64,000 bases of DNA, taken from contig JBLMWU010000214.1 in the NCBI GenBank assembly GCA_050257395.1, positions 3,606 through 67,605 on the forward strand, given 5' to 3'. Position numbers and translations under genes: made by a program. Shown here one piece after another: positions 9,279 to 59,026 of the stretch (position 1 is its first letter; each line of letters opens with the position of its first letter). The notes beneath the pieces were generated by a model. The model saw only the letters and a list, made by a program, of their open reading frames with translations. It ran no database searches and was not told the DNA's origin. Source of the stretch: Gemmatimonadota bacterium (GTDB taxonomy: Bacteria > Actinomycetota > Actinomycetes > Streptosporangiales > Streptosporangiaceae).

Positions 9279-9324
9279 CTGCCCTTCCGCGCGTGGCTGG
9301 CGGCACGGCGCGGCGGCGGATTCC

Positions 9325-28087: not shown

Positions 28088-28205
28088 CCGTCAGGGCACA
28101 TAGTAATCAGATTGGTGTCATTCAGCTACACTGAGTAGTCAACGGCGGGAGCGGCGAGACTGGTGTGGCTGCAGAGAGTCAAGAGACTGTGTACTCTCCG
28201 TCATT

Positions 28206-29189: not shown

Positions 29190-29239
29190 CGTCCGGGCCC
29201 CGGATAACCGGATGAGGGGGCCGCGGCCGCTGCTCTAAG

Positions 29240-39646: not shown

Positions 39647-39695
39647 CCCGCCGGGCGGGCAGCGGGCCGGCGGCGGTCAGCGGGCCGGCGGCGGC

Positions 39696-41216: not shown

Positions 41217-41478
41217 GGACCTCCCCAATGGCGCTGACCGGCCTGCCGCCGATCCTGTTCCCCCCGGCCCCCTAGCGCCGAGAGTCGGATTGTAGCGGGT
41301 GCCGGTTATCGCCGGGTAGGCGCGCGAGCGCCAGATGGCTATGCTGTGTCCGCTGGTGACGGCGCGTTCGCCAGCGGGAGTCAGGAACGGCGGGGAGGGG
41401 GCTGCCGATGTCCGCGGAGTGTCGCCCCTCGGTGACTCGCCGTAACAGCGTGGGTGGCCGGCAGACAGGAACGGCGCA

Positions 41479-42201: not shown

Positions 42202-42223
42202 GGTAGGGCCGCCGGCCGGCGGC

Positions 42224-43099: not shown

Positions 43100-44436
43100 C
43101 CACTGTCCAGGGGCTGTTCCCGGCCGTCGGGGACGTCGTGCGGATGGCGCGGGCCGGCAACCCGATCCGGCTCGAGGCGCGGGTGGCCGAGGGCGGCCAG
43201 GGCGTGGTCTACCGGGGGACGTCGGAGGGCAACACCCGGGTGGCCGTCAAGTGGTACCGGCCGGGCCCGCTCACCGACCGCCAGCAGGCGGCCATCGAGC
43301 AGCTCACCCTGCACCGCCGCCCGCACGACGCGTTCGCCTGGCCGATCGACATGGTGACCTGCGAGCGCGCCCGCGGCTTCGGCTACGTGATGCCCTGGGT
43401 GCCGGAGCGGTTCGGCTCCCTGGTGGAGCTGCTCCGGGCTCCCGAGCAGCCGCCGTTCCGGGTGATCGTGTCGATCGCCCGCCAGCTCGTGGACGCGTTC
43501 GCCGCCCTGCACGCGAGCGGGCTGTGCTACCGGGACATCAACTTCGGGAACCTGCTCGTCGACCCCGAGCGGCCCGAGGTGATCATCGTCGACAACGACA
43601 ACGTCGGCACCGAGGGCGGCGACGTCTTCGTCCGCGGCACGCTGCGGTTCATGGCGCCGGAGATCATCACCGGGCAGGCCGACCCCTCGACCGTCAGCGA
43701 CCTGCACTCGCTGGCCGTGTTCCTGTTCTTCCTGCTGGTGCACGGCCACCCGCTGGAAGGGCGCCGGGTGCGCGTCTCCTACACCTGGCAGGATGACGGC
43801 CACGTGTCCGAGACCACGCTGGCCATGCAGCATTTCGGGCTGAACCCGTGCTTCGTGTTCGACCCCGGCGACAATTCGAACCTGCCCGAGCCGGGCGACC
43901 CGATGCTGATCTGGTGGCCGATCTACCCCACCTTCATCCAGGCCCTGTTCACCCGGGCGTTCACCACCGGGCTCAAGGACGCCTCCCTCAGCGGGCGGAT
44001 CACCGAGGGGGAATGGCGGCGCGCCCTGGCCCGCCTGCACGACTGCGTGTCGGTGTGCCCGTGCACCGCCGCGGTGTTCTGGGACCCGGCGAACCCGCGC
44101 ATCAGGTGCTGGAACTGCGGGGCGACGGTGGCGGCGCCGCCGGTGCTGGAGATCGCGGGCCACTCGCTGGCCCTGTCCGAAGGTGCCGTCCTCACCCGCA
44201 ACCACCTCTCCCGCGGCAGCGACTACCTGACCCCGATCGGGCTGGTGGAGCGGCATCCGCGGCAGCCGGAGCAGGTGGTCCTGCGCAACGTCAGCGACGC
44301 GCCCTGGACCGTTGAACCGGACGGCGAGGGAGTCAAGAGCGTGGCGCCCGGCCAGCGGCTGGGGGTGCGGCCGATGACCATCCGGTTCGGGACTGTCCGC
44401 GGGGCGATCAGGGTTCCCGGCGCTGACCATCAGTGA
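43096..44436 (+). CDS. Ser/Thr protein kinase-like protein (TerY-P triad kinase) with C-terminal extension
   Basis: GQGVVYRG, VAVKW, catalytic loop YRDINFGNLLV, DFG-equivalent and GTLRFMAPE are present. A C-terminal Cys cluster (CVSVCPC...CWNCG) may bind zinc. Confidence 0.75.
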   Translation: MTTVQGLFPAVGDVVRMARAGNPIRLEARVAEGGQGVVYRGTSEGNTRVAVKWYRPGPLTDRQQAAIEQLTLHRRPHDAFAWPIDMVTCERARGFGYVMPWVPERFGSLVELLRAPEQPPFRVIVSIARQLVDAFAALHASGLCYRDINFGNLLVDPERPEVIIVDNDNVGTEGGDVFVRGTLRFMAPEIITGQADPSTVSDLHSLAVFLFFLLVHGHPLEGRRVRVSYTWQDDGHVSETTLAMQHFGLNPCFVFDPGDNSNLPEPGDPMLIWWPIYPTFIQALFTRAFTTGLKDASLSGRITEGEWRRALARLHDCVSVCPCTAAVFWDPANPRIRCWNCGATVAAPPVLEIAGHSLALSEGAVLTRNHLSRGSDYLTPIGLVERHPRQPEQVVLRNVSDAPWTVEPDGEGVKSVAPGQRLGVRPMTIRFGTVRGAIRVPGADHQ

Positions 44437-44555
44437 CCGGGTGAACTGTTCCGTTTGCCGGTATTCCGCTGCCATAATGCGGCTACCGCCGCGCCGGGGC
44501 GGCCGCTATCCGGGCCGCCCGCCGGCCGGCTCGCGGGGGGAAGGCGGGAAAGCCC

Positions 44556-46073
44556 GTGAACGAGCTTGTCGTCCGGCACGGCGGCCAGCAGGTGGGCCTG
44601 GTGCCTGGTCAGGCGGCCATCATCGGCCGGGGTGCCGGCAGCATCCTGCGGGTCGATGACCCCCGGGTCTCCCGCGAGCACATCCGGCTGAGCTACGGCC
44701 CGCAGGGCTGGCTGCTGGAGAGCGTGGGCCGCAGCGGCACCTACCTCGCTGGCCAGCCGGTCACCCGGCTGGCGCTCAGCCAGCCGGTGGAGGTCACCCT
44801 GGCGCAGGCGGACGGCCCGCTGCTGCGCTTCGAGCCGGCCGGCGTCCCGGTGGCGGCCCCCGCCCCGCCGGCCCCCGGGGCCCAGCTGCCGCAGCCCGCG
44901 GCCGCCCAGGCGGCACCTGCTCCCCCGCCAGCCCCGGCGGCGCCGGTCCCGCAGGCAGCCCCGCCCGGCTATGGGGCGCCCGCGGGCCAGGTTCCCTACG
45001 GGATGGTGCCGGGCCAGCCCGGCCAGCCCGGCTACCCCGGCCAGCCGCCGCCCGGGGCCGGCTTCGGCGCGCCGCTCACGCCCGGCGGCATGCCCGGCCC
45101 CCGGCCGGCCGACCTGGCGGGCGGCAACATCTTCACCGCGCTGCGGATGCTGGTCCCCATCGCGTCCTGGGTCCGGGACCCGGCGTTCCGCCAGTGGTAC
45201 CGGCTGCTGGTGGCGGTGTACGCGCTGGCGCCGGTGGTCATGCTGGTCGAGCTGCAGCACACCACCAGCCTGACCACGCTCGGCTGGGTGTACTGCCTGT
45301 ACGTGGCGCCGCTGTGGGCCCTGGTCTTCTGGTTCCTCATCCGGCCCGGGCCGCTGGGCCGCCGGGAGATCGTGCTCACCGCGATCTTCGTGGTCGCCGA
45401 GGTGATCCTCATCCCGGTGCTGACCCTGCCCTGGGAGAACGCCCTCGCCCCGGCCAACAGCAGCCACAACCCGTTCTCCTGGACCTACGGGGTCGGCCTG
45501 GCCGAGGAGTTCACCAAGGCGCTGCCGGTGCTGGTGGCCGCGATCGTGCTGGTGGCCCGCAAGACCAAACTCGACGTGCGGATGTGGATGTTCCTCGCGT
45601 GCCTGTCCGGGCTGATGTTCGGGGTGTACGAGGCTTCGGTGGTGTATGTCCCGCTGGACGTGCAGACGGTCGCGCACGGCTTCGCGTTCGGCATCCCGGA
45701 ATTCGTCGAACGGGTCTTCCTCGACGGGCTGCAGCACGCGCTGTGGGCCGGCATCGCCGGGTTCTTCATCGGCCTGGGCGCGAACTACCACCGCCAGCGC
45801 ATCCCGCTGTGGATCTTCGGCCTGGCGCTGCCCTCGGTGCTGCACGGCCTTAACGACTGGGCCACCACCGGGGTGTTCGGGCACAACCTGTGGCCGTGGA
45901 TCGCCATCCAGGCGTTCTCGGTGTTCCTCTTCCTCGGCTACACCGCCTCCGCGGCGTCGATCGAGCGGGAGGTGCGGCACACCCCGATGTTCCGCGGCGA
46001 CTCCATGATCTTCGACGCGTCCCGGCTGCTCCCGCCGCCGGGCGGTCCTCAGGTCCCGCGCGGGCAGGGGTAG
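44556..46073 (+). CDS. FHA domain fused to a PrsW/CAAX-type intramembrane protease domain
   Basis: N-terminal FHA (AAIIGRGAGSILRVDDPRVSREHIRL...SGTYLAG), then a Pro/Ala-rich linker, then about 8 TM helices. Motifs EEFTK (EExxK), FLDGLQH and HGLND (HxxxD/N) match PrsW/Rce1-type proteases. Confidence 0.7.
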   Translation: MNELVVRHGGQQVGLVPGQAAIIGRGAGSILRVDDPRVSREHIRLSYGPQGWLLESVGRSGTYLAGQPVTRLALSQPVEVTLAQADGPLLRFEPAGVPVAAPAPPAPGAQLPQPAAAQAAPAPPPAPAAPVPQAAPPGYGAPAGQVPYGMVPGQPGQPGYPGQPPPGAGFGAPLTPGGMPGPRPADLAGGNIFTALRMLVPIASWVRDPAFRQWYRLLVAVYALAPVVMLVELQHTTSLTTLGWVYCLYVAPLWALVFWFLIRPGPLGRREIVLTAIFVVAEVILIPVLTLPWENALAPANSSHNPFSWTYGVGLAEEFTKALPVLVAAIVLVARKTKLDVRMWMFLACLSGLMFGVYEASVVYVPLDVQTVAHGFAFGIPEFVERVFLDGLQHALWAGIAGFFIGLGANYHRQRIPLWIFGLALPSVLHGLNDWATTGVFGHNLWPWIAIQAFSVFLFLGYTASAASIEREVRHTPMFRGDSMIFDASRLLPPPGGPQVPRGQG

Positions 46074-47822
46074 AACGCCGAGCCGTCCAGGTTGACGTTC
46101 AGCTTGAGCGCGGCGAAGCCGTCCGCCGGGGCATAGACGGCATGGCAGAACGAACTGAACCGGTGCTGGCCCCGGCAGCGCTGGCCGGGGTCGCACACGT
46201 AGCGGTCGGCCCCGTACTCGGCCTCGCCGGCCCACTTGCCGGTGGGCTGACGGCGGGTCACGTCGGCGGTGAAGGCGTCCCAGCCGCACGGGGTGCGGCC
46301 GCGCAGGCCGGTGCAGGTGATCCCGTACTGGCGGCTGCCGCGGAACTGCGCGGCGAAGCAGGCGTGATTGAGGTAGCACTCCTCGACCACGGCGCCGTCC
46401 GTGTAGCGGCGTCCCCACCAGGACAGGTAGGGCGAGTTCTTCCACAGGGCGGTCATCCCGTAGCGGTGCACCTCGTTGAAGGCGTAGGCGAGGAAGTTCT
46501 GCGCGTCACCGGGGGTCAGCATGAACCCGGTGGTGGACGGCGGGTCGAAGCTGTCGATGTCGTCCAGCTCGACCGCGTCGAAGCCCTTGCGCGCGCACAT
46601 CGCGATGCGCTCGCGCAGCATCGGCGCCAGCGCGCCCAGCTGCCGGAAGTCGACCCAGCGCTCCTCCGGGTAGCCGTAGTAGACCTTGCCGAGCGCGGCG
46701 GCCGGGAACCAGCGGCCCCGCGGTGACGGGCTCGCGTCGGGCCGGTAGTCCTCCCAGGCCAGGTCCAGGTAGCAGACCGCCCGCGGGTGCGCGATGGTGC
46801 TGGCCTGCCAGCTGGTGCGGATCGCGCGGACCTGCGCCGCGGTGGTCAGGAAGCCGTCCACGTCGTACATGTCCACCGCGCGCCTGCCGGTCCGCTGCAG
46901 CGGGGTGACCCGGCCGATCTGCCAGTCCCACCGCATCGGGCGGCGGCCCGCGGCCCCGCGGGAGGCGGCCAGGTGCGGCGGGTACCAGCACGGGTGCTGG
47001 CGCGCGGCCAGGCAGGCCACCGGCGCGGGCAGCGGCACCACGTCCCAGCCGAACCGGATCACGCTGGCGCCCGCGTGGTCGGCGGTGAGCACCGCGACCT
47101 GGTGCCGGCCGGGCCGCAGCGGGCCGGTGTAGAAGGTGCGCGCGGCAGGCAGCGCGTGCCACGGCCCGCCGTCGATCCGGAACCGCTGCCGCGGCTGCCC
47201 GTCCGCGGCGTTGTAGTGCGGGGCGGTGACCTGGAAGTATTCCTCCGCCGACGCGGTGCGCCGCTCGGGGGTGCCGTTGATGAACGCCGCGGCGGGCCGC
47301 TGGTGCGCCGGGTACGCCAGCACCCGCACCGCGCCGAGGCGGCTGACCGAGCGGCGGACGACCCGGAACGTGAACGTGGCCGGCCGGGTCTCGACCACCT
47401 CGGCGGCGGTCTCGGTGAGCCGCAGCCGCCGGCCGGTGTCGCTGTGCGCCACCCGGTGGCGGGCGGCGGCGAAGGGGGTGACGGGCGAGTCCGCCGCGGT
47501 CACGCAGTGCGTGCCGTCAGCCCGGCAGCTCTGCCACGCGTAGCCGACCTCGAAGGTGAGCAGCCGCATCCCATGCGGCAGCCGCGGCACCCGCCAGGCC
47601 AGCCCGGTCGCGGCCACCATCGCGCCGTCGCGCGGGCGGCCGTTGATCCGCAGGCTGCCCCGCGGCGCCGGCGGCGGGACCGGCTGGCCGGCCGTGGCGG
47701 CGGGTGCCGCCCGCGGCGGGTCAGCCGCGGCGCCGGCGGCCGGCGGGGCCAGCCCCAGCAGCGCCGCGGCCGCGGTGAGGCCGGCCAGCCGGCCGGCCCA
47801 GGCGGGCAGGGCTGCGGGCATG
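46049..47822 (-). CDS. Secreted GH114-like (endo-alpha-1,4-polygalactosaminidase-type TIM barrel) protein with Cys-rich C-terminal domain
   Basis: Signal peptide MPAALPAWAGRLAGLTAAAALLGLAPPAAGAAA. The VDMYDVDGF...CYLDLAWEDY...KGFDAVELDDIDSF block resembles GH114/GHL catalytic regions. Start at the ATG with RBS GGAGGTGG. Confidence 0.6.
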
Positions 47823-47844
47823 GCCGTCCACCTCCGCGGCAGGG

Positions 47845-49140
47845 TCAGCGGCGGAAGGCCGCGGGCAGCAGGTCCGCGTGCGCGGCGAACAGCTCGTCGC
47901 ACATCGCGATGGTCTCCGCCGTGGTCAGGGTGGCCGAGGTGTTCGGGTCGAGCAGCGCGGCCTGGTAGACGTGCTCGCGGGACTCCGCCAGCGCAGCCTT
48001 CACGGTCAGCTCGGCCACGTTGAGGAAGGTCCGGTTGAGCGCGGCGAGCTGCGGCGGCAGCGCGCCGATCGCCACCGGCTTGGCGCCGCCCGCGCCGACG
48101 GTGCAGGGCACCTCGACGCAGCACTCATCGGGCAGGCTGGAGATCAGGCCGCCGTTGCGGATGTTCACGTGCAGCTCGCGTTCCCGGCCGGTCTCCAGCG
48201 AGTGGATGAACAGCGACGCCAGCTCGTGCGTGGGCGCCAGGTCGAGCGGCTCATCCGACTCCAGCGCGCGCTCCAGCGATGCGAGCTCGCGCAGGTTCTC
48301 CTCGGACCGGGCCAGGTAGTCGCCCACGAAGATGCGGAACTGCCCGATCTGCGAGTCGTGGCGCATGAACCACGGCACGTACTCGGCGGAATGCTCGCTG
48401 GACTCGGTCGGGAAGTAGCCGAACCGGCGGAAGATCTCCACCCGCACCCGGCGCTGCAGCTCCGGGGAGCCGTCGATGACCTCGGCCAGCCGCGGGTACA
48501 GGGACTCGCCGTCCTGCTCGAAACGCAGCACGAACGCCTGGTGGTTGAAGCCCGCCGTGACGAAGCGGACGCGGTCCGGGTCCGCGCCGACCAGCCCGGT
48601 GAGGAACGCCTGGGTGTCGCGCACCGAGTGGCACAGCCCGAACACCCGGCCAAAGGGCGTCCCCTCGTACACGGCCCAGGGCAGCATGGCCATCGGGTTG
48701 CTGTAGCTGAGCAGGTACGCGTCCGGGCACACCGCCAGCATGTCGGTGGCGAGCGCGGTCACCACCGGGATGGTCCGCAGGCCGCGGAAGATCCCGCCGA
48801 TGCCGATCGTGTCCCCGATGGTCTGCCGCACGCCGTACCGGGCCGGGATGCCGAAGTCGGCGCGGGTCGCGTCGTAGCCGCCGACCTGCACCTCGTTGAT
48901 CACGTAGCGGGCGCCCGCCAGCGCCTCCCGCCGGTCCATGCTGGCGGACACGGCCGCGCCGCTGCCGGTCTGCGCCACGATCCTGCTGGCCAGCCGCTCG
49001 GCGTGGGCCAGCCGGGCGGCGCTGATGTCGTACAGCGCGAGTTCCAGGCCGTCCCACAGCTCCGGGTAGCTGCACAGGTCGGTGACCACGTTGCGGGTGA
49101 ACTCGATGCTGCCTGCGCCGATGAACGTCACCTTGAGCAC
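47845..49140 (-). CDS. Glycoside hydrolase family 4 (NAD+/Mn2+-dependent alpha-glycosidase)
   Basis: N-terminal KVTFIGAGS Rossmann motif and the SNPM / CHS catalytic motifs are present. Confidence 0.8.
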   Translation of the reverse strand: MLKVTFIGAGSIEFTRNVVTDLCSYPELWDGLELALYDISAARLAHAERLASRIVAQTGSGAAVSASMDRREALAGARYVINEVQVGGYDATRADFGIPARYGVRQTIGDTIGIGGIFRGLRTIPVVTALATDMLAVCPDAYLLSYSNPMAMLPWAVYEGTPFGRVFGLCHSVRDTQAFLTGLVGADPDRVRFVTAGFNHQAFVLRFEQDGESLYPRLAEVIDGSPELQRRVRVEIFRRFGYFPTESSEHSAEYVPWFMRHDSQIGQFRIFVGDYLARSEENLRELASLERALESDEPLDLAPTHELASLFIHSLETGRERELHVNIRNGGLISSLPDECCVEVPCTVGAGGAKPVAIGALPPQLAALNRTFLNVAELTVKAALAESREHVYQAALLDPNTSATLTTAETIAMCDELFAAHADLLPAAFRR

Positions 49141-49315
49141 GGTTCGTTAGTGTTCCATCCGGCCTGTTTTCGCGCAAGACTGCGCATCTAGTGCGCTTCC
49201 GGGGCTTGACACTCGGGTCGCCGATGCACAAACTTGTCGGCAATTCACAGGATCTGCGCAACTTGAATCGTGAGCAGGCTTGGCTCGCACCAGGTCCCGG
49301 CCGGAGAAGGAGAGC

Positions 49316-50602
49316 ATGATGCCCAAGCGCCGGCTGCGCGTCACCCTGGCAGGCTCACTCGCTGCGCTCGCCGTCGTCCTGGCCGCGTGCGGCACCGACA
49401 GCACCGGCGGTGGCGGCGGCAGCATCCAGCTCTGGGAGGGCTACACCGGCCCCGACGCCAAGCCGTTCGCGCACCTGGTGAGCGAGTACAACGCCACCCA
49501 TCCGGGCCAGCACGTGGCCACCCTGTTCGTCAACAACGACAACACGCTGCAGAAGGTGCTGACCGCGGTGCGCGGCGGCAGCCCGCCCGACATCGCCTAC
49601 CTCTACGGCTCGTGGGCGCCGAACGTCGCGCAGATCCCGCAGGTGGTCAACCTGACCGGCGTGGTCCGCCGCCCGGGCGTCAACTGGAACGACTTCTGGG
49701 TCGGCGAGCGGGCCGTGGCCACCGTCAACGGCAAAGTGATCGGCATCCCGGCGCTGGTGGACAACCTGGCCGTGGTCTACAACAAGACGCTGTTCGCCCG
49801 GGCCGGCCTGCAGCCGCCAAGCGCCAGCTGGACCTGGCAGCAGTTCCAGGCCGACGCGCAGAAGCTGACCGACCCGGCGCGCAAGCAGTACGGGACGGCG
49901 TACGTCACCCCGGGCACCGAGGACACGGTCTGGCATTGGGAAGCCCTGCTATGGGAGGCCGGCGGCCAGCTGCTGACCGCTGACGGCAAGAAGGCCGCGT
50001 TCAACTCCCCCGCGGGGCTGGCGTCGCTGAACACCCTGCGCACGATGGCCGTGTCCGACCATTCGATGTACCTGGACCCGACCGACTCGGCCTACGCCAA
50101 CCTGTTCAACTCCGGCCGGATCGGGATGCTGGTCACCGGCCCGTGGGACCTGGGGAACTTCCCGAACGTGCACTACGGCGTGCAGGTCATGCCGTCCTAC
50201 CCGGGCACCAGCGGCGGCCACCAGACGATCTCCGGCCCGGACAACTGGGTGGTGTTCAACAACGGCGCCAGCCGGGTGGCCGCGGCGGAGAAGTTCCTGC
50301 TCTGGCTCACCGCGCCCGCTCAGGTCCGGTACTTCTCGCTGCACAGCGGCGAGCTGCCGACCCGCCAGTCGGTGGGCAACGCCGCGTTCAGCCAGCAGAT
50401 GGACGCCGCGCTGCCCGGGGTCGGCGCCTTCATCGGCAACCTGGCCAACGTCCGGCAGGCCCGCCCGCAGATCCCGCAGTACCCGAAGATCTCCCAGGTG
50501 CTGGGCACCATGGTGGTGTCGGTGCTGCTGGGCAAGAGCCAGCCGCAGGCGGCCCTGAGCTCGGCGGCCCAGCAGGTCAACCAGATCCTGGCCACCGGCT
50601 GA
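49316..50602 (+). CDS. Sugar ABC transporter substrate-binding lipoprotein
   Basis: RBS AAGGAGAG then ATG. Lipobox LAACGTDS. About 430 aa, family-1 SBP. Confidence 0.8.
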   Translation: MMPKRRLRVTLAGSLAALAVVLAACGTDSTGGGGGSIQLWEGYTGPDAKPFAHLVSEYNATHPGQHVATLFVNNDNTLQKVLTAVRGGSPPDIAYLYGSWAPNVAQIPQVVNLTGVVRRPGVNWNDFWVGERAVATVNGKVIGIPALVDNLAVVYNKTLFARAGLQPPSASWTWQQFQADAQKLTDPARKQYGTAYVTPGTEDTVWHWEALLWEAGGQLLTADGKKAAFNSPAGLASLNTLRTMAVSDHSMYLDPTDSAYANLFNSGRIGMLVTGPWDLGNFPNVHYGVQVMPSYPGTSGGHQTISGPDNWVVFNNGASRVAAAEKFLLWLTAPAQVRYFSLHSGELPTRQSVGNAAFSQQMDAALPGVGAFIGNLANVRQARPQIPQYPKISQVLGTMVVSVLLGKSQPQAALSSAAQQVNQILATG

Positions 50603-50603
50603 C

Positions 50604-51572
50604 GTGACCCGCACGGACACGCTGCTGCGCCGGGACCGCGCCGGCCGGGACCGCTCCCGGCGGGCGCGGCCCGGGCCGGGGCGCCAGCGGCGCACCAGGG
50701 TGCTGAGCTCGGAGCAGTTCGCCGGCTGGTCGTTCGTGACCCCGGGGGCCGCCGTCATCCTGCTGTTCGGCGCGGCGCCGATCGTGTGGTCGATGGTGAT
50801 GTCCTTCCAGCACTCCACGCTGTCGCCGGGCACCCCGTTCGTGGGCCTGCGCAACTACCGGCAGCTCGTCCACGACCCGGTGGTGGTGCAGGCGATCGGC
50901 CACACGCTGGTGTACACCGCGCTGTTCGTGCCCGGCACGATGATCGCCGGGCTGTTCCTCGCGGTGGCGATGAACCGGAAGATCCGGTTCCTCTGGCTCT
51001 ACCGGACCGCCGCCTACGCCACCATGGCGATCTCCACGATCAGCGAGGCGATCGTCTTCATCTGGCTGTTCGACCCGTCTTACGGGATCGTCAACTACCT
51101 GCTCGGGCTGTTCGGGGTGCCGCCGCAGCAGTTCCTCAACTCCCCCTCGCAGGCGCTGTACGTGATCGTGGTGATGACGGTCTGGGGCTGGACCGGCTTC
51201 GCGGTCGTCATCTACCTGGCCGCGCTGCAGGGGATTCCGCAGGTCCTCACCGAGGCGGCGGCCATCGACGGGGCCGGCCCCTGGCGGACGTTCCGCCGGA
51301 TCACCCTGCCGCTGCTGAGCCCGGCGTCGCTGTTCCTGGCGGTGTGGCTGACCATCAACGCGCTGCAGCTGTTCGACGAGGTGTACCTGAGCACCCAGGG
51401 CGGGCCGCTGAACGCCACCACCGTGCTCGTCTACTACCTCTACGTGCAGGCGTTCCAGAACTTCGACTTCGGTTACGCCTCCGCGATCGCCTACTTCCTG
51501 TTCCTCATCATCATCGTGGTCACCGCCATCCAGTTCCGGGTCGGCAGGCGGCTGACCTACTACCGGTCATGA
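50604..51572 (+). CDS. Sugar ABC transporter permease (MalF-like)
   Basis: Six TM helices; EAA-like loop AAAIDGAGPWRTFRRITLPLL. Confidence 0.8.
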   Translation: MTRTDTLLRRDRAGRDRSRRARPGPGRQRRTRVLSSEQFAGWSFVTPGAAVILLFGAAPIVWSMVMSFQHSTLSPGTPFVGLRNYRQLVHDPVVVQAIGHTLVYTALFVPGTMIAGLFLAVAMNRKIRFLWLYRTAAYATMAISTISEAIVFIWLFDPSYGIVNYLLGLFGVPPQQFLNSPSQALYVIVVMTVWGWTGFAVVIYLAALQGIPQVLTEAAAIDGAGPWRTFRRITLPLLSPASLFLAVWLTINALQLFDEVYLSTQGGPLNATTVLVYYLYVQAFQNFDFGYASAIAYFLFLIIIVVTAIQFRVGRRLTYYRS

Positions 51573-52441
51573 CGGCGGCCCCGGTCCCGGCCGCCCGCCG
51601 GCGGCGGCTGCCGTTCAGCCCCTGGCACCTGGTGCTGGTCCCGGCGACAGTGGTGCTGATCTTCCCATTCGCGTGGCTGGTCATCACCTCGCTGGAGACC
51701 CCGGCCGAGGCGCTGCACTTCCCGCCGGTGCTGCTCCCCCACCGGCTGCAGGCCGGCAACTACCCGGCGGCGCTGGCGAGCGCGCCGTTCACCCGGTTCT
51801 TCGTCAACAGCGCCCTCGTCGCGGTCGTCACCGTGCTGTCGAACCTGGTGCTGTGCTCGCTGGCCGGGTACGCGTTCGCCCGGTTCCGCTTCCTGGGCCG
51901 CGGCGCCCTGTTCGCCGTGATCATGGCGACGCTGATGGTGCCGTTCCAGGTCACGATGATCCCGCAGTTCATCATCACCAAGTGGCTCGGCGTGCACGTG
52001 CTGGCCGCGGTCGGCATCAACCATCTCGGCGCGCTCATCCTGCCGAACGCGGCGACCGCCTTCGGGATCTTCTTCCTGCGCCAGTTCTTCCGCACGCTGC
52101 CGCTGGAGTACGAGGAGTCGGCGCGGGTGGACGGGGCCAGCCGGCTCACCGTGCTGTGGCGGATCGTGCTGCCGCTCGCCACCCCGGCGCTGGCCACCCT
52201 GGCCGCGCTCACCTTCCTCGACTCGTGGAACAACTTCCTGTGGCCGCTGATCGCCATCACGTCCACGGACAAGATGACGCTCCCGCTCGGCCTGGCGACC
52301 TTCCAGGGCGCGCACTCGACCGAATGGCCGCTGCTGATGGCCGGCAACGTCATGAGCCTCGCGCCGATGATGGTGATCTTCTTCGTGGCCCAGCGCTACT
52401 TCGTGCGGTCCATCGCCGCCACCGGCCTCGCCGGGACCTGA
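51569..52441 (+). CDS. Sugar ABC transporter permease (MalG-like)
   Basis: ATGA overlap with the upstream permease; EAA loop ESARVDGASRLTVLWRIVLPL. Confidence 0.8.
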   Translation: MTAAPVPAARRRRLPFSPWHLVLVPATVVLIFPFAWLVITSLETPAEALHFPPVLLPHRLQAGNYPAALASAPFTRFFVNSALVAVVTVLSNLVLCSLAGYAFARFRFLGRGALFAVIMATLMVPFQVTMIPQFIITKWLGVHVLAAVGINHLGALILPNAATAFGIFFLRQFFRTLPLEYEESARVDGASRLTVLWRIVLPLATPALATLAALTFLDSWNNFLWPLIAITSTDKMTLPLGLATFQGAHSTEWPLLMAGNVMSLAPMMVIFFVAQRYFVRSIAATGLAGT

Positions 52442-52483
52442 GCACACCAGCCCCGGCAGCAGTGAGAGGAAAGGAAACATCGC

Positions 52484-53389
52484 ATGGGCAACGAGGCCAC
52501 CGCAGGCGCCGGCACCGAACGGGAGGTGGCGTCGCAGCCAGCCTGCTGGCGGCGGGCCGCTGACCTGGCCGCCAGCGCCGCCGGGGTGCTGCCGGCCAGC
52601 GGCGAGCGGGTCGCGGTCGCCGGCTGCGGCACGTCCTGGTTCATGGCCCAGTCCTACGCGGCCGCCCGGGAGGCGGCCGGGCACGGGGAGACCGACGCGT
52701 TCGCCGCCTCCGAGATGCCGCCCGGCCGCCGCTACGACCGGGTCCTGGTGCTGTCGCGCTCCGGCACGACCACCGAGATCGTCGACCTGCTGACCCGGCT
52801 GCGCGGCCGGGTGCCCACGGTCGCGATCACCGCTGTCACGGGCACGCCGGTGGCCGAGGCCGCGGACGCGGTGGTGGACCTCGGCTTCGCGGACGAGGAA
52901 TCCGTGGTGCAGACCCGGTTCGCCACCACCGAGCTGGCGCTGCTTCGCATCCACCTGGGTCACGACATCGGGCCGGTGGCGGACGCGGCCGAGCGGGTGC
53001 TGGCCGAGCCGCTGCCCGCGGACCTGACCGGCGCCCGCCAGTTCACCTTCCTCGGCACCGGCTGGACCTACGGGCTCGCCAACGAGGCGGCGCTCAAGCT
53101 CCGGGAGTCGGCCGGGCTGTGGACCGAGGCGTACCCGGCCATGGAGTACCGGCACGGGCCGGCCGCCGTCACCGCGGCGGGCAGCGTGGTCTGGGTGTTC
53201 GGCGCCCCGCCCGACGGGCTGGCGGCAGAGGTCGCGGCCGCGGGCGGCGTGGCCTGGCACACCGGCGAGGACCCGCTGGCCGAGCTGGTCCGGGTGCACG
53301 TGCTCGCCGTGGCCGTGGCCCGCGCCCGCGGGCTGGACCCGGACCGGCCGCGCAACCTCGCCCGGTCCGTCATCCTCACCCCGCGCTGA
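52484..53389 (+). CDS. SIS-domain sugar-phosphate isomerase/deaminase (AgaS/GlmS-C-like)
   Basis: VAGCGTSWFMAQS and VLVLSRSGTTTE SIS motifs are present. Confidence 0.7.
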   Translation: MGNEATAGAGTEREVASQPACWRRAADLAASAAGVLPASGERVAVAGCGTSWFMAQSYAAAREAAGHGETDAFAASEMPPGRRYDRVLVLSRSGTTTEIVDLLTRLRGRVPTVAITAVTGTPVAEAADAVVDLGFADEESVVQTRFATTELALLRIHLGHDIGPVADAAERVLAEPLPADLTGARQFTFLGTGWTYGLANEAALKLRESAGLWTEAYPAMEYRHGPAAVTAAGSVVWVFGAPPDGLAAEVAAAGGVAWHTGEDPLAELVRVHVLAVAVARARGLDPDRPRNLARSVILTPR

Positions 53390-53403
53390 CCGGGCGGCCC
53401 GCC

Positions 53404-54357
53404 GTGATCCTCGTCGTCTGCCTCAACCCGGCGCTGGACATCACCCACCAGGTGATGGCGGTGGACTGGGCCGGGGTGAACCGGCCCGGCGCGGTGCACA
53501 CGAGGCCCGGCGGCAAAGGCCTGAACGTCGCCCGCACGCTGCACGCGGTCGGTGCCGGGGTGCTGGTCATGGGGCTGGCCGGCGGCACCACCGGGGCAGC
53601 GGTGACCGGTGCCCTGGCCGGTCTCGGGGTGCCCGCCGCGTTCACCCCGGCCGCCGGGGAGACCCGGCGGACGTTCACCGTCGTGGACGGCCGGGCCGGC
53701 ACGACCGCGCTGTTCAGCGAGCCCGGCCCGGAGATCAGTGCCGCGGAGTACACGCTGTTCACCGGCGCGTACGCGGCCGCCCTGCCGGGTGCCGCCGCGG
53801 TGGTGCTGTCCGGCAGCCTGCCGCCGGGCGTCCCGGCGGACGCCTACGCCGTGCTCGGCGCGATGGCCGCGGCGGCCGGGGTGCCGGTGCTGCTGGACGC
53901 GCACGGGGAGCCGCTGCGGCTGGGTGCCGCGGCCGGGCCCGCGATCGTCAAGCCCAACCTCGCCGAGCTGGAGGCCCTGGCCGGCCGCAGCCTGTCCACC
54001 GCCCGCGGCGCCGACCGGCGGGCCGTGGCATCCGCCGCCCGGGAGCTGCGGGCCGCGGGCGCGCAGGCGGTGGTCGTCACGCTCGGGCCGGACGGGCTGC
54101 ACGCCGTGACCGGCGACGGCAGCTGGGACGCGGCGCCCCCGGCCGTCGCCGCGGGCAACCCCACCGGCGCGGGCGACGCCGTCGCGGCGGGCCTGGCACA
54201 CGGCCTGATCCTGGGCCGCCCCTGGGACGAGCGGCTGCGGCACGCGGTCGCCCTCGGCACCGCGTCAGCCGCCGCGCCGGTCGCCGGCGAGTTCAGCCAC
54301 TCCCACTACTCCGACCTGCTGGCGCAGGTCAGGGTCGGCCGCAGCGAGATGCACTGA
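53404..54357 (+). CDS. PfkB-family hexose-phosphate kinase (tagatose-6-phosphate / 1-phosphofructokinase type)
   Basis: GTG start. VCLNPALD and GGKGLNVARTL N-terminal motifs and the C-terminal NPTGAGDA are present. Confidence 0.7.
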   Translation: MILVVCLNPALDITHQVMAVDWAGVNRPGAVHTRPGGKGLNVARTLHAVGAGVLVMGLAGGTTGAAVTGALAGLGVPAAFTPAAGETRRTFTVVDGRAGTTALFSEPGPEISAAEYTLFTGAYAAALPGAAAVVLSGSLPPGVPADAYAVLGAMAAAAGVPVLLDAHGEPLRLGAAAGPAIVKPNLAELEALAGRSLSTARGADRRAVASAARELRAAGAQAVVVTLGPDGLHAVTGDGSWDAAPPAVAAGNPTGAGDAVAAGLAHGLILGRPWDERLRHAVALGTASAAAPVAGEFSHSHYSDLLAQVRVGRSEMH

Positions 54358-55220
54358 TGATGCAGCCCGGGACCGCGGCCGGCATCGTCGGCCCCGCCTA
54401 CGCCGCGGGCCGGGGCGCCGGCGCGTTCAATGTGATCGGCATCGAGCACGCGGAGGCGATCGCCGCGGGGGCCGAGACCGCGGCAGCGCCCGTTCTGCTG
54501 CAGATCAGTGAGAACTGTGTCCGCTACCACGGCGCCCTGGAGCCGCTGGGCCGGGCCTGCGTGGCGATAGCCCGGTCGGCCGCGGTGCCGGTGGGCGTGC
54601 ACCTGGATCACGCGACCAGCCCGGACCTGGTCCGCGCCGCCGCCGGCCTGGGCTTCGGGTCGGTCATGTTCGACGCGTCCCGGCTGCCCTACGCGCAGAA
54701 TGTCCAGCAGACCGCCGAGATCGCCCGCTGGTGCCACGAGCGCGGCCTGTGGGTGGAAGCGGAACTCGGTGAGATCGGCGGGAAGGACGGCGTGCACTCG
54801 GCCACGGCCCGGACCCGCCCGGACGAGGCGGCCGGCTACGTGGCCGCCACCGGTGTGGACGCGCTCGCGGTGGCGGTCGGCAGCTCGCACGCCATGCTGA
54901 CCCGCACCGCCGTGCTGGACCTGGGCCTGATCACCCGCATCCGCGCCGCGCTCGGCGTGCCGCTGGTGCTGCACGGCTCCTCGGGGGTGCCCGACGGCGA
55001 GCTCGCCGCCGCGATCCGGGCGGGCATGACGAAGATCAACGTGGCGACCCAGCTGAACAAGGTCTACACCGCCGCGATCCGCGCATATCTGGCCGCCAAT
55101 ACGACAATGGTGGATCCCAGGAAGTACGGTGCGGCAGGGCGCGACGCGGTGGCCGCGGAGGTTGCCCGCCTGCTGACAGTGATCGGAGGCGCCGGTGAGC
55201 CGGTACCGGCGGTGGAATGA
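54357..55220 (+). CDS. Class II fructose/tagatose-bisphosphate aldolase (GatY/KbaY-like)
   Basis: GAFNVIGIEHAEAI, VGVHLDHA and LHGSSGVPD zinc/catalytic motifs are present. Confidence 0.85.
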   Translation: MMQPGTAAGIVGPAYAAGRGAGAFNVIGIEHAEAIAAGAETAAAPVLLQISENCVRYHGALEPLGRACVAIARSAAVPVGVHLDHATSPDLVRAAAGLGFGSVMFDASRLPYAQNVQQTAEIARWCHERGLWVEAELGEIGGKDGVHSATARTRPDEAAGYVAATGVDALAVAVGSSHAMLTRTAVLDLGLITRIRAALGVPLVLHGSSGVPDGELAAAIRAGMTKINVATQLNKVYTAAIRAYLAANTTMVDPRKYGAAGRDAVAAEVARLLTVIGGAGEPVPAVE

Positions 55221-55980
55221 GCTGCTGGAACTGCTGGCCGCGGCCGGGCAGCTCCAGGTCGAGGAGGCCGCGAAGGAACTGGGGGTGTCCGCCGCCACCG
55301 TCCGCCGCGACTTCGACGAACTCGCCCGGCAGCAGATGCTCACCCGGATCCGCGGCGGCGCCGTCGCCCAGGGCGTCACCTACGACCTGCCGCTGCGGTA
55401 CAAGAGCGAGCGGCACCCGTCGGAGAAGCAGCGCATCGCGGCGGTGGCCGCCGCGCTGGTGCGGCCCGGCCAGGTGATCGGGCTGAACGGCGGCACCACC
55501 ACCACCGAGGTGGCCCGCGCGCTGGCCACCCGTTCCGACCTGAGCACGGGGACCACCGGGCCCGCGCTCACCATCGTCACCAACGCCCTCAACATCGCGA
55601 CCGAGCTGGCGGTCCGCCAGCACATCAAGATCGTCACCACCGGCGGGGTGGCCCGCCCGCAGTCCTACGAGCTGGTCGGGCCGCTGGCCACCGGCGTGCT
55701 GGAGCAGGTCACCCTGGACGTGGCGTTCGTGGGCGTGGACGGGATCGACGCGGCGGCGGGCGCGACCGCGCACCACGAGGGCGAGGCGAGCATCAACCGG
55801 CTGATGGCGCAGCAGGCGGACCGGGTCGTCGTCCCGGCGGACAGCTCCAAGGTGGGCCGGCGCGCGTTCGCCCGGATCTGCACGGCCGCGGAGATCGACG
55901 TCCTCGTCACCGACACCGGGATCGCGGCGGCGGACGCCGCCCGGCTGGAGGAGGCCGGGGTGCAGGTTGTCACCGCCTGA
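55195..55980 (+). CDS. DeoR-family transcriptional regulator
   Basis: HTH VEEAAKELGVSAATVRRDFDELA and a C-terminal sugar-phosphate sensor domain. Confidence 0.8.
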   Translation: MSRYRRWNELLELLAAAGQLQVEEAAKELGVSAATVRRDFDELARQQMLTRIRGGAVAQGVTYDLPLRYKSERHPSEKQRIAAVAAALVRPGQVIGLNGGTTTTEVARALATRSDLSTGTTGPALTIVTNALNIATELAVRQHIKIVTTGGVARPQSYELVGPLATGVLEQVTLDVAFVGVDGIDAAAGATAHHEGEASINRLMAQQADRVVVPADSSKVGRRAFARICTAAEIDVLVTDTGIAAADAARLEEAGVQVVTA

Positions 55981-56977
55981 CCCGGCAGCGCCTGACCCGG
56001 CAGCGGCCGTGCGGCCCGATCTGGTGGTGATCGGCGACTGCAACCCGGACGTGCTCGTGCTGGGCGAGGACGTGACGCCCGCGTTCGGGCAGCAGGAAAA
56101 GCTGGTCGAGAGCATGTCGCTGGTGGTCGGCGGCTCCGCGTCGATCACCGCGGTCGCAGCGGCGCGGCTCGGCCTCAGGGTCACCCTGGTGGCGGCGGTC
56201 GGCGCGGACCCCGCGGGCCAGTTCATGCTGGACCAGCTGGCCAGCGAAGGCGTTGGCACCGGCGCGGTGGCTGTCCGCAGCGACCTGCCGACCGGCATGA
56301 CGGTGGCGCTGTCGCGGGGCGGTGACCGGGCGATCCTGACCGCCACCGGCGCGGTCGCCTCGCTCACCGCGCGGGACGTCCCGGCGCCGCTGCTGGCCGT
56401 GGCCCGCCACGTGCACATCAGCTCCTACTTCCTGCTGGCGGACTCACTCGGGCCCGGCCTGGCCGGGCTGATGGCGTCGGCGCGGGCGGCCGGGGCGGCC
56501 GTCTCGCTGGACACCAACTGGGACCCGGCCGGCCGCTGGGCCGCGGACGGCCGGCTGGCCGGCGTGCTCGCCCAGGCCGGCCTGCTGCTGCCCAACGAGG
56601 CGGAGGCGCTGCGGCTGAGCGGGGAGCCGGACCTGGCCGCGGCGGCCCGGGCACTCACCGCGGGCGGGGCGAGGCTGGTGGTGAAGCTCGGGGCCAGGGG
56701 CGCGCTGTGCGCGGACGGGCGCGAGCGCTACCGGGTCAGCCTGCCGCCGGTGACGCCGGTCGATGCCACCGGGGCGGGTGACTGCTTCAACGCGGGCCTG
56801 ATCGCCGGGCTGCTCAGCGGCCTGCCGCTGCCCCGGGCGGCCGCACTCGGCTGCGCGGCCGGGGCGCTGTCCACCCGGGCCCCCGGCGGCACCGGGAGCT
56901 GTCCCAACCTGGCCGCGGCGACGGCCCTGGCGGGGCAGGCGGTCATCCGGGACGCAGCGGAAGCGCCGCTGCCGTAG
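55967..56977 (+). CDS. PfkB/ribokinase-family sugar kinase
   Basis: The DATGAGDCFNAG anion-hole motif is present. Confidence 0.8.
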   Translation: MSPPDPAAPDPAAAVRPDLVVIGDCNPDVLVLGEDVTPAFGQQEKLVESMSLVVGGSASITAVAAARLGLRVTLVAAVGADPAGQFMLDQLASEGVGTGAVAVRSDLPTGMTVALSRGGDRAILTATGAVASLTARDVPAPLLAVARHVHISSYFLLADSLGPGLAGLMASARAAGAAVSLDTNWDPAGRWAADGRLAGVLAQAGLLLPNEAEALRLSGEPDLAAAARALTAGGARLVVKLGARGALCADGRERYRVSLPPVTPVDATGAGDCFNAGLIAGLLSGLPLPRAAALGCAAGALSTRAPGGTGSCPNLAAATALAGQAVIRDAAEAPLP

Positions 56978-57109: not shown

Positions 57110-59026
57110 GTGAGCGAAGACACGGTTTCCGCACCCGGTCACGGGGCATCGCAGCACCAGCCGCCGGAGCATCCGGCGACCGAGGTCCGGCGCGGCTCCA
57201 GCGGGGCGGGCGCGCTCCCGGCCGCGATCGGACCGGGCAGCGAGATCGCCGGCTACCGCGTCGAGGAGCAGATCGGCCAGGGCGGCATGGCCGCGGTGTA
57301 CCGCGCCCACGACGAGCGCCTGAACCGCCCGGTGGCGCTCAAGCTGCTCGCACCGGCGCTGGCCACCGACACCGCGTTCCGGCAGCGGTTCATCCGGGAG
57401 TCCCGGGCCGCGTCCGCCGTGGACCATCCCAACATCATCCCGGTCTACGACGCCGGCGAGACCGACGGCATCCTGTACATCGCCATGCGGTACGTGCACG
57501 GCGGCGACGTCGGGTCGCTGGTCCGGCGGGACGGCCCGCTTGCCCCCGCCCGGGCCTGGGCCATCATCAGCCAGGTCGCCTCCGCGCTCGACGCCGCCCA
57601 TGAGCACGGCCTGATCCACCGCGACGTCAAGCCGGCGAACATGCTGCTCGACGCCGGCACGGCCACCGGCTGGCTCGGCCCGGGTGCCGCCGCAGGCCGG
57701 GCCGAGCACGTGTACCTGTCCGACTTCGGGATCAGCAAGCAGTCGGTAGCCACCGCGGGCACCCTCACCAAGACGGGCCAGTTCGTCGGAACCCTCGACT
57801 ACATCGCGCCCGAGCAGCTGCAGGGCGGCACCGTGGACGGCCGCACCGACCTGTACTCCCTGGGCTGCGCCGCGTTCGAGCTGCTCAGCGGCGTGCCGCC
57901 GTTCCACCAGGACCGGGAGTTCGCGCTGATCCGGGCGCACCTCGCCGACCCGCCGCCGCTGCTGACCGCGCACCGCGCCGGGATCCCCCCGGACGCCGAC
58001 CGGGTGCTGGCCCGGGCGATGGCCAAGTCGCCCGCTGAGCGCCACGCCACCTGCGCCGAGTTCGCCAGGGACCTGGGCCGGGCGCTGGGGCTGGTGGCCG
58101 CCGGGCCCTCGCCGCCGCCGCTGGCCCCGGTGCCGCCGCAGGCGCTGCAGCCGACAGCGCCCGCAGCAGCCGGCCTGCCGGTCCCGCCCGCGGGGCCGGT
58201 GACTCCCGCCGGCCCGGTTCCCCCCACCTCCGCGGATCAGATCCCCACCGCGCTCACCCCGGGCCCGGTGACCGGCGGGACGCCCCCGGGCGGCACCGGC
58301 TGGCCGCAGCAGCCGCCCCAGCGCACGGCCTACGGGCAGTCCTGGCCGCCCGGGCCGGGCTGGCAGGAGCCGCCGCCCCGGCGCCGCTCCCGCAGCATGA
58401 TCATCGCGGTGATCACCGCCGTGGTGGTCCTGCTGGCGGCGGGCGCCGCGGCCGCCGTCTACTTCTACAGCCACCGGCAGCCGGGCACCCCGGCGCCAAC
58501 CGCCGCGCCCAGCGTGCCGGCATCGTCCGGGCAGCCTCCGGTGACGTCGGCGCCGCCGTCGGAGCCGGTGACGTCACCGCAGCCGAACCCGGCCGCGCGC
58601 GCCCAGGCGACCGACATCAGCAACCTGCTGCAGACCGGCCACGGCAGCAGCACGCAGCTGTCGGACGCCGCCGCGAACATCCGGACCTGCACCAATGTCC
58701 CGCAGAACGTGCAGGTGATCCAGCAGGTCCGCGACCAGCGCCAGGCCGAGCTCAGCCAGGCCCAGACGCTGTCCGTGAACGCCCTGAGCAACGGCGCCCA
58801 GCTGAAGACGAGCCTGGTGCAGGCGCTGCAGGATTCGCTGACCGCGGACGACGCCTATCTGACGTGGGCTCAGCAGCAGGAGGCGAGCTGCACGCCCGGC
58901 AGCCAGTCCAGCGACGCGGCCGCCGCCGACGCGCAGGCCGTGAGCAGCAAGCAGGCGTTCATCGGGCGGTGGAACCCGGTCGCCGCCCAGTACGGCCTGC
59001 CCCGGGAAACAGTGGCGTCCATCTAG
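57110..59026 (+). CDS. Hanks-type Ser/Thr protein kinase with one TM helix and extracellular domain; paralog of the 16724 kinase
   Basis: Its kinase domain is nearly co-linear with the 16724 kinase (GYRVEEQIGQGGMAAVYRAHD...HRDVKPANML...DFGISK...YIAPEQ). TM helix MIIAVITAVVVLLAAGAAAAVYF. Confidence 0.85.
   Translation: MSEDTVSAPGHGASQHQPPEHPATEVRRGSSGAGALPAAIGPGSEIAGYRVEEQIGQGGMAAVYRAHDERLNRPVALKLLAPALATDTAFRQRFIRESRAASAVDHPNIIPVYDAGETDGILYIAMRYVHGGDVGSLVRRDGPLAPARAWAIISQVASALDAAHEHGLIHRDVKPANMLLDAGTATGWLGPGAAAGRAEHVYLSDFGISKQSVATAGTLTKTGQFVGTLDYIAPEQLQGGTVDGRTDLYSLGCAAFELLSGVPPFHQDREFALIRAHLADPPPLLTAHRAGIPPDADRVLARAMAKSPAERHATCAEFARDLGRALGLVAAGPSPPPLAPVPPQALQPTAPAAAGLPVPPAGPVTPAGPVPPTSADQIPTALTPGPVTGGTPPGGTGWPQQPPQRTAYGQSWPPGPGWQEPPPRRRSRSMIIAVITAVVVLLAAGAAAAVYFYSHRQPGTPAPTAAPSVPASSGQPPVTSAPPSEPVTSPQPNPAARAQATDISNLLQTGHGSSTQLSDAAANIRTCTNVPQNVQVIQQVRDQRQAELSQAQTLSVNALSNGAQLKTSLVQALQDSLTADDAYLTWAQQQEASCTPGSQSSDAAAADAQAVSSKQAFIGRWNPVAAQYGLPRETVASI

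Follow-up and report, generated by a model that had tools for sequence, protein, structure and literature searches.

Galactosaminogalactan (GAG) and Pel are polymers with a major part in the adhesion and protection that fungal and bacterial matrices provide. Most enzymes known to cleave them are encoded in the biosynthetic clusters of the producers themselves, and no description of soil consumers of these cationic polymers, or of the route that such consumers would use, was found in the literature. Here, a ten-gene locus is described from a 64,000-nucleotide stretch of contig JBLMWU010000214.1 (positions 3,606 to 67,605 of the forward strand; assembly GCA_050257395.1, labelled 'Gemmatimonadota bacterium'), which is referred to as the window. 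The locus (46049–56977) encodes a glycoside hydrolase (GH) of family GH114, a GH4 glycosidase, parts of a sugar importer, and a set of sugar-phosphate enzymes with a repressor. It is rather likely to be a self-contained utilisation locus for an alpha-linked, galactosamine (GalN)-rich polymer. The candidate substrates would be alpha-1,4-polygalactosamine, the deacetylated stretches of fungal GAG, and Pel-type bacterial matrix.

Literature searches returned no paper on a catabolic locus with GH114 and GH4, or on a bacterial pathway for the consumption of polygalactosamine or GAG. The individual genes are already auto-annotated in GenBank. What the locus offers is a concrete ten-gene set, which includes a bacterial GH114 with new appended domains, a candidate for the first GH4 alpha-galactosaminidase, and putative non-orthologous replacements in GalN and tagatose metabolism. 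Enzymes of this kind would also be of interest as biofilm-degrading tools.

Closest described systems

The closest described counterparts of the GH114 protein are Ega3 of Aspergillus fumigatus (PDB 6OJ1/6OJB) and the endo-alpha-1,4-polygalactosaminidase of Pseudomonas sp. 881. They have in common with it the PF03537 domain, the (beta/alpha)8 fold, the catalytic Asp/Glu, and the acidic residues of the cleft. The conserved Cys pattern is also kept, with C482 and C488 of the window protein aligning with a Cys pair of Ega3. Sequence identity to the window protein is only about 18%. Relative to Ega3, the window protein adds an N-terminal region of about 230 aa that resembles immunoglobulin (Ig) and fibronectin type III (FnIII) domains, two insertions carrying Cys pairs, and a basic charge, and it has a Tyr at the tip of the Trp154 loop. 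Furthermore, it is encoded in a catabolic operon and not in a biosynthetic cluster.

The Aga pathway of Escherichia coli and Shewanella (AgaS, tagatose-6-phosphate kinase, KbaY/AgaY, and AgaR) follows the same logic as that predicted here. Galactosamine-6-phosphate (GalN-6-P) is converted to tagatose-6-phosphate (Tag-6-P), then to tagatose-1,6-bisphosphate (TBP) and finally to trioses, under the control of a DeoR-family repressor. In the window locus, however, an ATP-binding cassette (ABC) oligosaccharide importer and a cytoplasmic kinase take the place of the phosphotransferase system, the putative deaminase is GlmD-like and not AgaS, two glycoside hydrolases are integrated, and neither KbaZ/AgaZ nor N-acetylgalactosamine (GalNAc)-6-phosphate deacetylase is present in the locus. 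Overall, the locus would serve the utilisation of an amino-sugar polymer, with non-orthologous parts making up an Aga/tagatose-like lower pathway.

The archaeal chitin pathway comprises an exo-glucosaminidase, a ribokinase-superfamily sugar kinase, and the SIS-type deaminase GlmD. The likeness lies in a free amino sugar that is released inside the cell, phosphorylated, and deaminated by a GlmD-type SIS enzyme. The window locus differs in that its predicted substrate is alpha-linked GalN, not beta-linked glucosamine (GlcN), and in that a dedicated kinase and aldolase would handle the product. Lastly, the GH4 has the GAGS (NAD-binding) and CHS (metal) motifs of E. coli MelA in common and is 40% identical to it, but is paired with GH114 and an oligosaccharide importer instead of a melibiose permease.

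A conserved ten-gene unit

Coding frames were called by an analysis of G+C content at third codon positions (GC3) by frame, together with a listing of open reading frames (ORFs), and families were assigned by Pfam and NCBIfam scans. The window has a G+C content of about 73%, as a result of which most of its long ORFs are spurious. The ten genes form two divergent operons. The minus-strand operon consists of GH4 followed by GH114, separated by a gap of 23 bp, while the plus-strand operon runs from the solute-binding protein (SBP) to a second PfkB-family kinase. Plus-strand neighbours mostly overlap or lie 1–42 bp apart, an arrangement that fits a single transcript. A scan of the locus for consensus promoters and terminators was uninformative. 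The inventory given by the initial annotation, made from the window's letters and ORFs, was recovered in full, the start of the GH114 gene being moved by one nucleotide (47821, previously 47822).

A scan of species-representative genomes confirmed 225 matching stretches, and the window proteins were compared by tblastn with 81 related loci. GH4 adjoins GH114 in 74 of these 81, and the full core (GH4, SBP, two permeases, SIS protein, kinase, aldolase, and DeoR regulator) is found in 45. The second PfkB accompanies the full core in 37 of the 45 loci; the remaining eight end before its position or have no qualifying match there. Most partial loci are contig ends. In none of the 81 loci is the block accompanied by the genes that flank it in the window. 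The block therefore recurs with differing flanks, which argues that the grouping is not due to chance and that the ten genes are one conserved unit. Dozens of genomes from uncultured soil actinomycetes share this cluster, the 45 with the full core being species-level soil MAGs (metagenome-assembled genomes) of Streptosporangiaceae or of a Trebonia-like kind.

The linkage also bears on whether the locus serves to consume a polymer or to finish one. Enzymes of GH114, GH135, and GH166 that have been characterised take part in the biosynthesis or maturation of polymers (PMC12054363). By analogy with Ega3 and PelA in biosynthesis, the window GH114 could trim the Pel-like exopolysaccharide of its own host, or aid its dispersal, with the neighbouring genes recycling the fragments. 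More distant GH114s (48–52% identical) indeed stand alone, in unrelated neighbourhoods without catabolic genes, so that the linkage of GH114, GH4, and importer is a feature of the window clade. Within that clade, the conserved association with an importer, a cytoplasmic glycosidase, a complete set of genes for a route to triose phosphates, and a repressor is what characterises a catabolic locus, and genes for a synthase, a deacetylase, or export are absent from the window. Such a role in matrix remodelling is thus quite improbable.

The GH114 protein

The GH114-domain protein (46049–47821, minus strand; 590 aa) starts at an ATG at 47821, with GGAGG upstream. Residues 297–490 match PF03537 (Glyco_hydro_114) with E = 2e-32 and 112.7 bits, against a gathering threshold of 27. 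Since PF03537 also matches members of GH191 (PMC12054363), this domain alone does not decide the family, and membership was therefore tested further. In the PDB, searches by sequence and by profile hit GH114 structures only, namely Ega3 (6OJ1/6OJB; profile E = 7e-11) and a Fusarium GH114 (9EP6). In a profile alignment to Ega3 (6oj1), with Ega3 residue numbers taken from PMC12054363, Asp189 corresponds to D420, Glu247 to E480, and the loop-tip Trp154 to Y384. An alignment of 60 diverse GH114s, including sequences only 30–45% identical, shows D420 to be kept in 59/60 and E480 in 60/60, and all 14 of the family-conserved acidic positions are present in the window protein.

Structural models agree with this assignment. 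A first AlphaFold2 run, on the full-length protein with 33 close orthologues, gave good N-terminal domains and a poor catalytic part, which was resolved by a second run on residues 285–590 with a diverse alignment (pLDDT 92.1, pTM 0.91). The top Foldseek match of the latter model is Ega3 (E = 3.7e-16, TMt 0.84), followed in order by FsGH114, Env-GH191, and three PelA structures; all six are enzymes of GalN/GalNAc polymers. The modified (beta/alpha)8 barrel of the model is nearer to GH114 than to GH191, GH166, or GH135. The GH114 assignment of the initial annotation is thus borne out by domain, fold, catalytic residues, and acidic positions alike, and secretion, which it had also proposed, is probable from a signal peptide read in the sequence (residues 1 to about 33, MPAALPAWAGRLAGLTAAAALLGLAPPAAGAAA). 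The gene probably encodes a secreted enzyme, a candidate GH114 endo-alpha-galactosaminidase.

The Cys-rich C-terminal 150 aa had been set apart as an unassigned module, possibly carbohydrate-binding. This part of the protein is in fact the C-terminal part of the GH114 barrel. The catalytic Glu (E480) falls inside it, and the alignment reveals the canonical GH114 motifs GK.V..EY, FC, and LDG....PC, with K529, E535, Y536, C559, and C586 each conserved in at least 51 of the 60 sequences. In the AlphaFold2 model, the region folds wholly into the barrel. Two clade-specific insertions (residues ~491–512 and ~539–552) each carry a Cys pair; the enzyme has 10 Cys. When only the last 108 aa were searched against PDB sequences, no meaningful match emerged; their homology to the GH114 C-terminus is visible only through the multiple alignment and the model.

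The additional domains lie instead at the other end of the protein. Residues ~45–270 (window 46969–47700), overlooked previously, form two beta-sandwich domains that are modelled with high confidence. This region matches no Pfam family, and its structural matches are generic Ig/FnIII/PKD-like folds only. Its isoelectric point (pI) is 11.2, an unusual value given that the enzyme is expected to bind a polycationic polymer, and the basic region might attach the protein to a surface of negative charge. Some GH114s with 48–54% identity have homologous N-terminal regions (P0136, P0138, and P0139).

The GH4 glycosidase

The GH4 gene (47845–49140, minus strand; 431 aa) encodes both GH4 Pfam domains (PF02056, 1e-51; PF11975, 3.2e-51). 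With the NCBIfam 'alpha-galactosidase' model PRK15076, its product reaches 534.8 bits (cut-off 486), and a full-length comparison with E. coli MelA gives 40% identity. In the alignment with MelA, FIGAGS and GLCHS coincide with the same motifs of that protein; we take them to be the NAD-binding site (G-x-G-S) and the metal site (Cys-His) of GH4, respectively. No signal peptide is present in the translation. The intracellular GH4 alpha-glycosidase that had been placed beside GH114 therefore holds, as a cytoplasmic, MelA-like protein. From its sequence, the GH4 is classed as an enzyme of the alpha-galacto type, and its natural substrate is probably an alpha-1,4-linked oligosaccharide terminated by GalN or galactose (Gal).

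Enzymes of GH4 are dependent on NAD+ and Mn2+. A precedent for NAD+-dependent elimination on a 2-amino sugar is provided by GH109, and this makes a GH4 galactosaminidase plausible. If true, a GH4 exo-alpha-galactosaminidase would be a new activity for the family, mechanistically parallel to the GH109 alpha-N-acetylgalactosaminidases.

Because the protein passes the alpha-galactosidase model, it may also simply be an alpha-galactosidase that acts on the galactose of GAG. In that case, the locus would serve the use of alpha-galactosides or galactose: alongside the MelA-type GH4, the PfkB kinase would phosphorylate Gal, the SIS protein would convert galactose-6-phosphate (Gal-6-P) to Tag-6-P without deamination, and the GH114 would open a Gal-containing heteropolymer such as GAG, in which alpha-1,4-galactose is present (PMC12054363). 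A variant of the locus that carries a dehydrogenase, an SMP-30 lactonase, and an IclR regulator (variant B, below) also resembles an oxidative galactose route. On the other hand, characterised GH114s are specific for GalN stretches (PMC12054363). Moreover, the characterised relatives nearest to the SIS protein (the GlmS isomerase domain, GlmD, and NagB-II) all act on amino sugars. To our knowledge, the Gal-6-P isomerases described so far are of the LacAB/RpiB type and not SIS proteins, which also counts against a galactose pathway. Altogether, this explanation has a small, though appreciable, chance of being correct.

The importer

The plus-strand operon begins with an SBP of a CUT1-type importer (49280–50602), a predicted lipoprotein that matches SBP_bac_1 (1.6e-36) and has an LAAC lipobox in its translation. 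Its orthologues occupy the same position in related loci and are 68–81% identical. Two permeases with BPD_transp_1 domains follow on the plus strand, the first UgpA/MalF-like (50604–51572; 153 bits with the NCBIfam UgpA model, below its cut-off) and the second UgpE/MalG-like (51569–52441), whose start overlaps the stop of the first (ATGA). The permeases are up to 90% identical to proteins of actinomycete-labelled MAGs (window proteins MGE5134860.1–MGE5134865.1).

The proposed ABC importer is thus present as an SBP and two permeases, and the locus contains no ABC ATPase gene. Actinomycetes usually rely on a shared ATPase encoded elsewhere in the genome. An ATPase is encoded in the variant-B loci and in two other related loci, L041 and L075. 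The predicted topology of the gene products (GH114 with a signal peptide, the SBP with a lipobox, and GH4 without a signal) is consistent with a route from outside to inside the cell.

The proposed lower pathway

The next gene (52484–53389, plus strand) encodes a double-SIS protein, with two stretches matching PF01380. Its top NCBIfam matches are the GlmS isomerase domain (88.7 bits) and GlmD (79.3 bits), neither the GlmD nor the NagB-II equivalog cut-off being reached (79 vs 580 and 48 vs 430, respectively). The best solved relative is the archaeal (Pyrococcus) GlmD 2cb0. The protein has the GlmS-like motif EAYPAMEYRHGP and an SRSGTT phosphate loop; this loop and AMEYRHGP, which contains the E-x-x-H-G catalytic motif, align with 2cb0. 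On these grounds, it is predicted to be a GlmS/GlmD-type amino-sugar-phosphate enzyme with a catalytic Glu motif, outside the AgaS family.

It is followed on the same strand by a hexose-phosphate kinase of the FruK/LacC/PfkB subfamily (53404–54357), which exceeds the cut-off of the 1-phosphofructokinase subfamily model TIGR03168 (273.4 vs 216.4 bits). The FruK equivalog is approached (252.7 vs 292), and the LacC models are far from reached (TIGR01231, 166.7 vs 409.6; NF010033, 161 vs 469). Of the earlier 'LacC/FruK-type' label, the subfamily is retained, while the LacC equivalog falls away, the protein being nearer to FruK. The aldolase (54357–55220, plus strand) is a class II ketose-bisphosphate aldolase of the short GatY/KbaY/Bacillus fructose-bisphosphate aldolase (FBA) type (PF01116, 1.6e-81) and is 37% identical to E. 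coli KbaY. Here, too, the class II membership of the proposed 'GatY/KbaY-type' enzyme stands; the GatY and KbaY equivalogs do not, since the protein is equidistant from FBA and GatY/KbaY. The combination of a dedicated hexose-phosphate kinase and a non-housekeeping aldolase points to a non-glycolytic ketose phosphate as the intermediate.

A different amino sugar or cationic polymer, for example one based on glucosamine, would also provide work for these genes. The top matches of the SIS protein are GlcN-6-phosphate enzymes (GlmS, 89 bits; GlmD, 79 bits), the kinase is nearest to FruK/PfkB, and the aldolase scores highest on the FBA model. The SIS protein would then be a GlcN-6-phosphate deaminase yielding fructose-6-phosphate, to be passed to a phosphofructokinase and a fructose-bisphosphate aldolase, and the GH114 would have drifted to a different cationic polysaccharide, in keeping with the lineage-specific barrel insertions and the non-acidic overall charge of the window clade. 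Nevertheless, fructose-6-phosphate requires no dedicated kinase or aldolase, the GH4 is of the alpha-galacto type, and the active-site acidic residues of the GH114 are all kept. A LacD-type tagatose-bisphosphate aldolase in a related locus (L075, below) likewise argues for tagatose. A substrate of this kind is therefore unlikely.

The last gene of the operon (55967–56977, plus strand) encodes the extra PfkB kinase of the initial annotation, which is indeed present, as a ribokinase-like sugar kinase (PfkB, 2e-54). It is 30% identical to FrlD, and a PfkB kinase, a double-SIS protein, and an ABC importer together recall the frl genes of Bacillus subtilis and E. coli, in which case a kinase and an SIS deglycase would break down fructosamines (Amadori products), that is, glycated amines imported by the ABC system. 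This option was rejected and is scarcely credible: a BLASTP comparison of the SIS protein with E. coli FrlB gave no match at E <= 1e-3, and the Frl pathway has no use for two glycoside hydrolases, a hexose-phosphate kinase, or an aldolase.

Variants in related loci

Eleven of the related loci represent a second arrangement, variant B, which comprises IclR, an SMP-30 lactonase (gluconolactonase), a Zn-dehydrogenase, an SBP, two permeases, an ATPase, GH4, and, at its end, an orthologous GH114 (L048, 982–11617; also L037, L049, L059, L063, L069, L073, L074, L077, and L078). The GH4 of this variant is distinct (485 aa, 38% identity). Variant B suggests an oxidative (aldonate) fate of the released sugar in the genomes that carry it. 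A CE4 deacetylase beside GH114 in L048 was considered as support for a GalNAc polymer and was dropped, as it is not conserved in other variant-B loci.

A further replacement is found in L075, a MAG with a complete chromosome (OY969804.1). There, the place of the class II aldolase is taken by a DeoC/LacD-family aldolase (9066–9962) that lies between GH4 and GH114. Its NCBIfam matches, four in number, are all to models of tagatose-1,6-diphosphate aldolase, the best reaching 173 bits (cut-off 184). The part of the L075 flank that was retrieved shows no FruK/LacC-type kinase. The LacD-type replacement favours the tagatose branch.

Regulation

The regulator gene (55195–55980, plus strand) encodes HTH_DeoR and DeoRC domains, and its product, AgaR/GlpR-like, is 33% identical to E. 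coli AgaR. The DeoR repressor named previously is thus confirmed as a member of that family. The two operons diverge from a 139-bp region (49141–49279) between GH4 and SBP, in which a candidate DeoR operator, CGCAAGACTGCGCAT, occurs at 49173–49187. Of 55 orthologous intergenic regions, 43 contain a G[CA]GCAAGA core. On the SBP side, a TTGACA box is followed downstream by GCA-rich repeats. The operator-like motif has one match in the window, equal to chance expectation and without enrichment, so that its support comes from conservation across genomes and it is regarded as a candidate operator only.

Proposed route and its weighing

From family membership and gene context, we infer the following substrates and steps. 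The probably secreted GH114, with its two N-terminal Ig/FnIII-like domains, would cut the polymer endolytically, D420 and E480 occupying the positions of the Ega3 nucleophile and acid/base. The resulting oligosaccharides would be imported by the SBP and the two permeases, powered by an ATPase of the MsiK type encoded elsewhere. In the cytoplasm, the GH4 would remove terminal alpha-GalN and/or alpha-Gal, and the ribokinase-like PfkB would phosphorylate GalN to GalN-6-P, which the GlmD-like SIS enzyme would convert to Tag-6-P and NH3. The FruK/LacC-type kinase could then form TBP, to be split by the class II aldolase into dihydroxyacetone phosphate and glyceraldehyde-3-phosphate. DeoR would repress both divergent operons until a pathway intermediate appears. 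In the complete route from polymer to triose phosphates that had been predicted, then, the gene set and its synteny are confirmed, and the passage from GalN to tagatose remains a coherent proposal.

The case for a GalN-rich polymer draws on the strict linkage of GH114, GH4, and importer, on the amino-sugar type of the SIS protein, on the dedicated kinase and aldolase, and on the independent LacD-type replacement. A stronger claim is more tentative and is considered possible, with the balance somewhat against it: that the locus encodes a complete, undescribed polygalactosamine route, in which the GH4 is an NAD+-dependent exo-alpha-galactosaminidase, the PfkB a galactosamine 6-kinase, and the GlmD-like, non-AgaS protein a GalN-6-P deaminase, none being known for those jobs.

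Several observations weigh against a GalN-to-tagatose route, beginning with its extracellular step. No characterised enzyme belongs to the clade of the window GH114, and, as noted, more distant family members lack the catabolic linkage. The catalytic domain has a pI of 8.6 and the N-terminal domains a pI of 11.2, against a median of 4.7 for GH114 domains, although charge is variable within the clade. Bacterial GH114s resist recombinant production and remain uncharacterised in recombinant form, as reported in a structural study of GH114 and GH191 from 2025, and one fungal GH114 is inactive on Pel (PMC12054363).

Within the cell, the objections concern the fit of individual proteins to their proposed roles. 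The 'AgaS-like' label of the SIS protein had to be abandoned: it scores 31.9 bits with TIGR02815 (cut-off 529.2), and BLASTP aligned only 57 aa with E. coli AgaS, at 35% identity. Its C-terminal motif NLARSV has an Arg aligned to a Lys of the 2cb0 GlmD, a position that corresponds to Lys603 of E. coli GlmS. We also know of no GH4 that acts on GalN glycosides, and the alpha-galactosidase score of the window protein has the simpler explanation given above. The kinase leans towards FruK, and the aldolase is below every equivalog cut-off (GatY, 208.7 vs 383; KbaY, 170.1 vs 542; tag_bisphos_ald, 199.9 vs 443.6; FBA, 220.7 vs 343). Similarly, the second PfkB reaches no equivalog (ribokinase, 125 bits; IolC, 123; tagatose kinase, 99), and the best match of the regulator, AgaR (NF040755), stays below its cut-off (198.9 vs 260 bits). 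Finally, variant B implies that the core of depolymerisation, import, and cleavage is constant while the monosaccharide module varies, so that the downstream chemistry is not fixed.

If the stronger claim is true, a large uncultured clade of acid-soil Streptosporangiales would be consumers of fungal GAG or of Pel matrix; in other members of the clade, the pathway would take a second, oxidative form (IclR, dehydrogenase, and lactonase).

Host and genomic surroundings

The window GH114 corresponds to NCBI MGE5134860.1, auto-annotated as 'endo alpha-1,4 polygalactosaminidase' and encoded on a contig of 71.7 kb. Its full-length relatives (61–83% identity) all come from metagenome contigs or MAGs labelled Streptosporangiaceae, Trebonia, Actinomycetes, or Actinomycetota. 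Because every named close relative is actinomycete-labelled and the window has a G+C content of about 73%, the bin label is doubtful, and the contig in this 'Gemmatimonadota bacterium' MAG is probably mis-binned or mislabelled. The earlier suggestion of a soil actinomycete as host is, judging from the labels of these relatives, probably right.

The locus is surrounded by signalling genes that are not conserved beside it in other genomes. Upstream (41479–46073) are a VWA protein, a PP2C phosphatase, a Ser/Thr kinase, and a fusion of FHA with a PrsW intramembrane protease, and another Ser/Thr kinase lies downstream (57110–59026). The upstream genes are preceded by a stretch of about 2.4 kb (39062–41479) in which G+C reaches 80% (40000–40999) and no ORF passes the GC3 coding filter. 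Further away, an 878-aa protein in which two FHA domains are fused to an ABC ATPase and an ABC-2 membrane domain (13814–16450, minus strand) adjoins a 912-aa Ser/Thr kinase with a beta-propeller-like C-terminus (16724–19462). The region 23053–30235 encodes a 1066-aa FAD-oxidase/4Fe-4S/CCG fusion, a thiamine pyrophosphate-dependent enzyme, a sulfotransferase, and an NAD-dependent epimerase/dehydratase.

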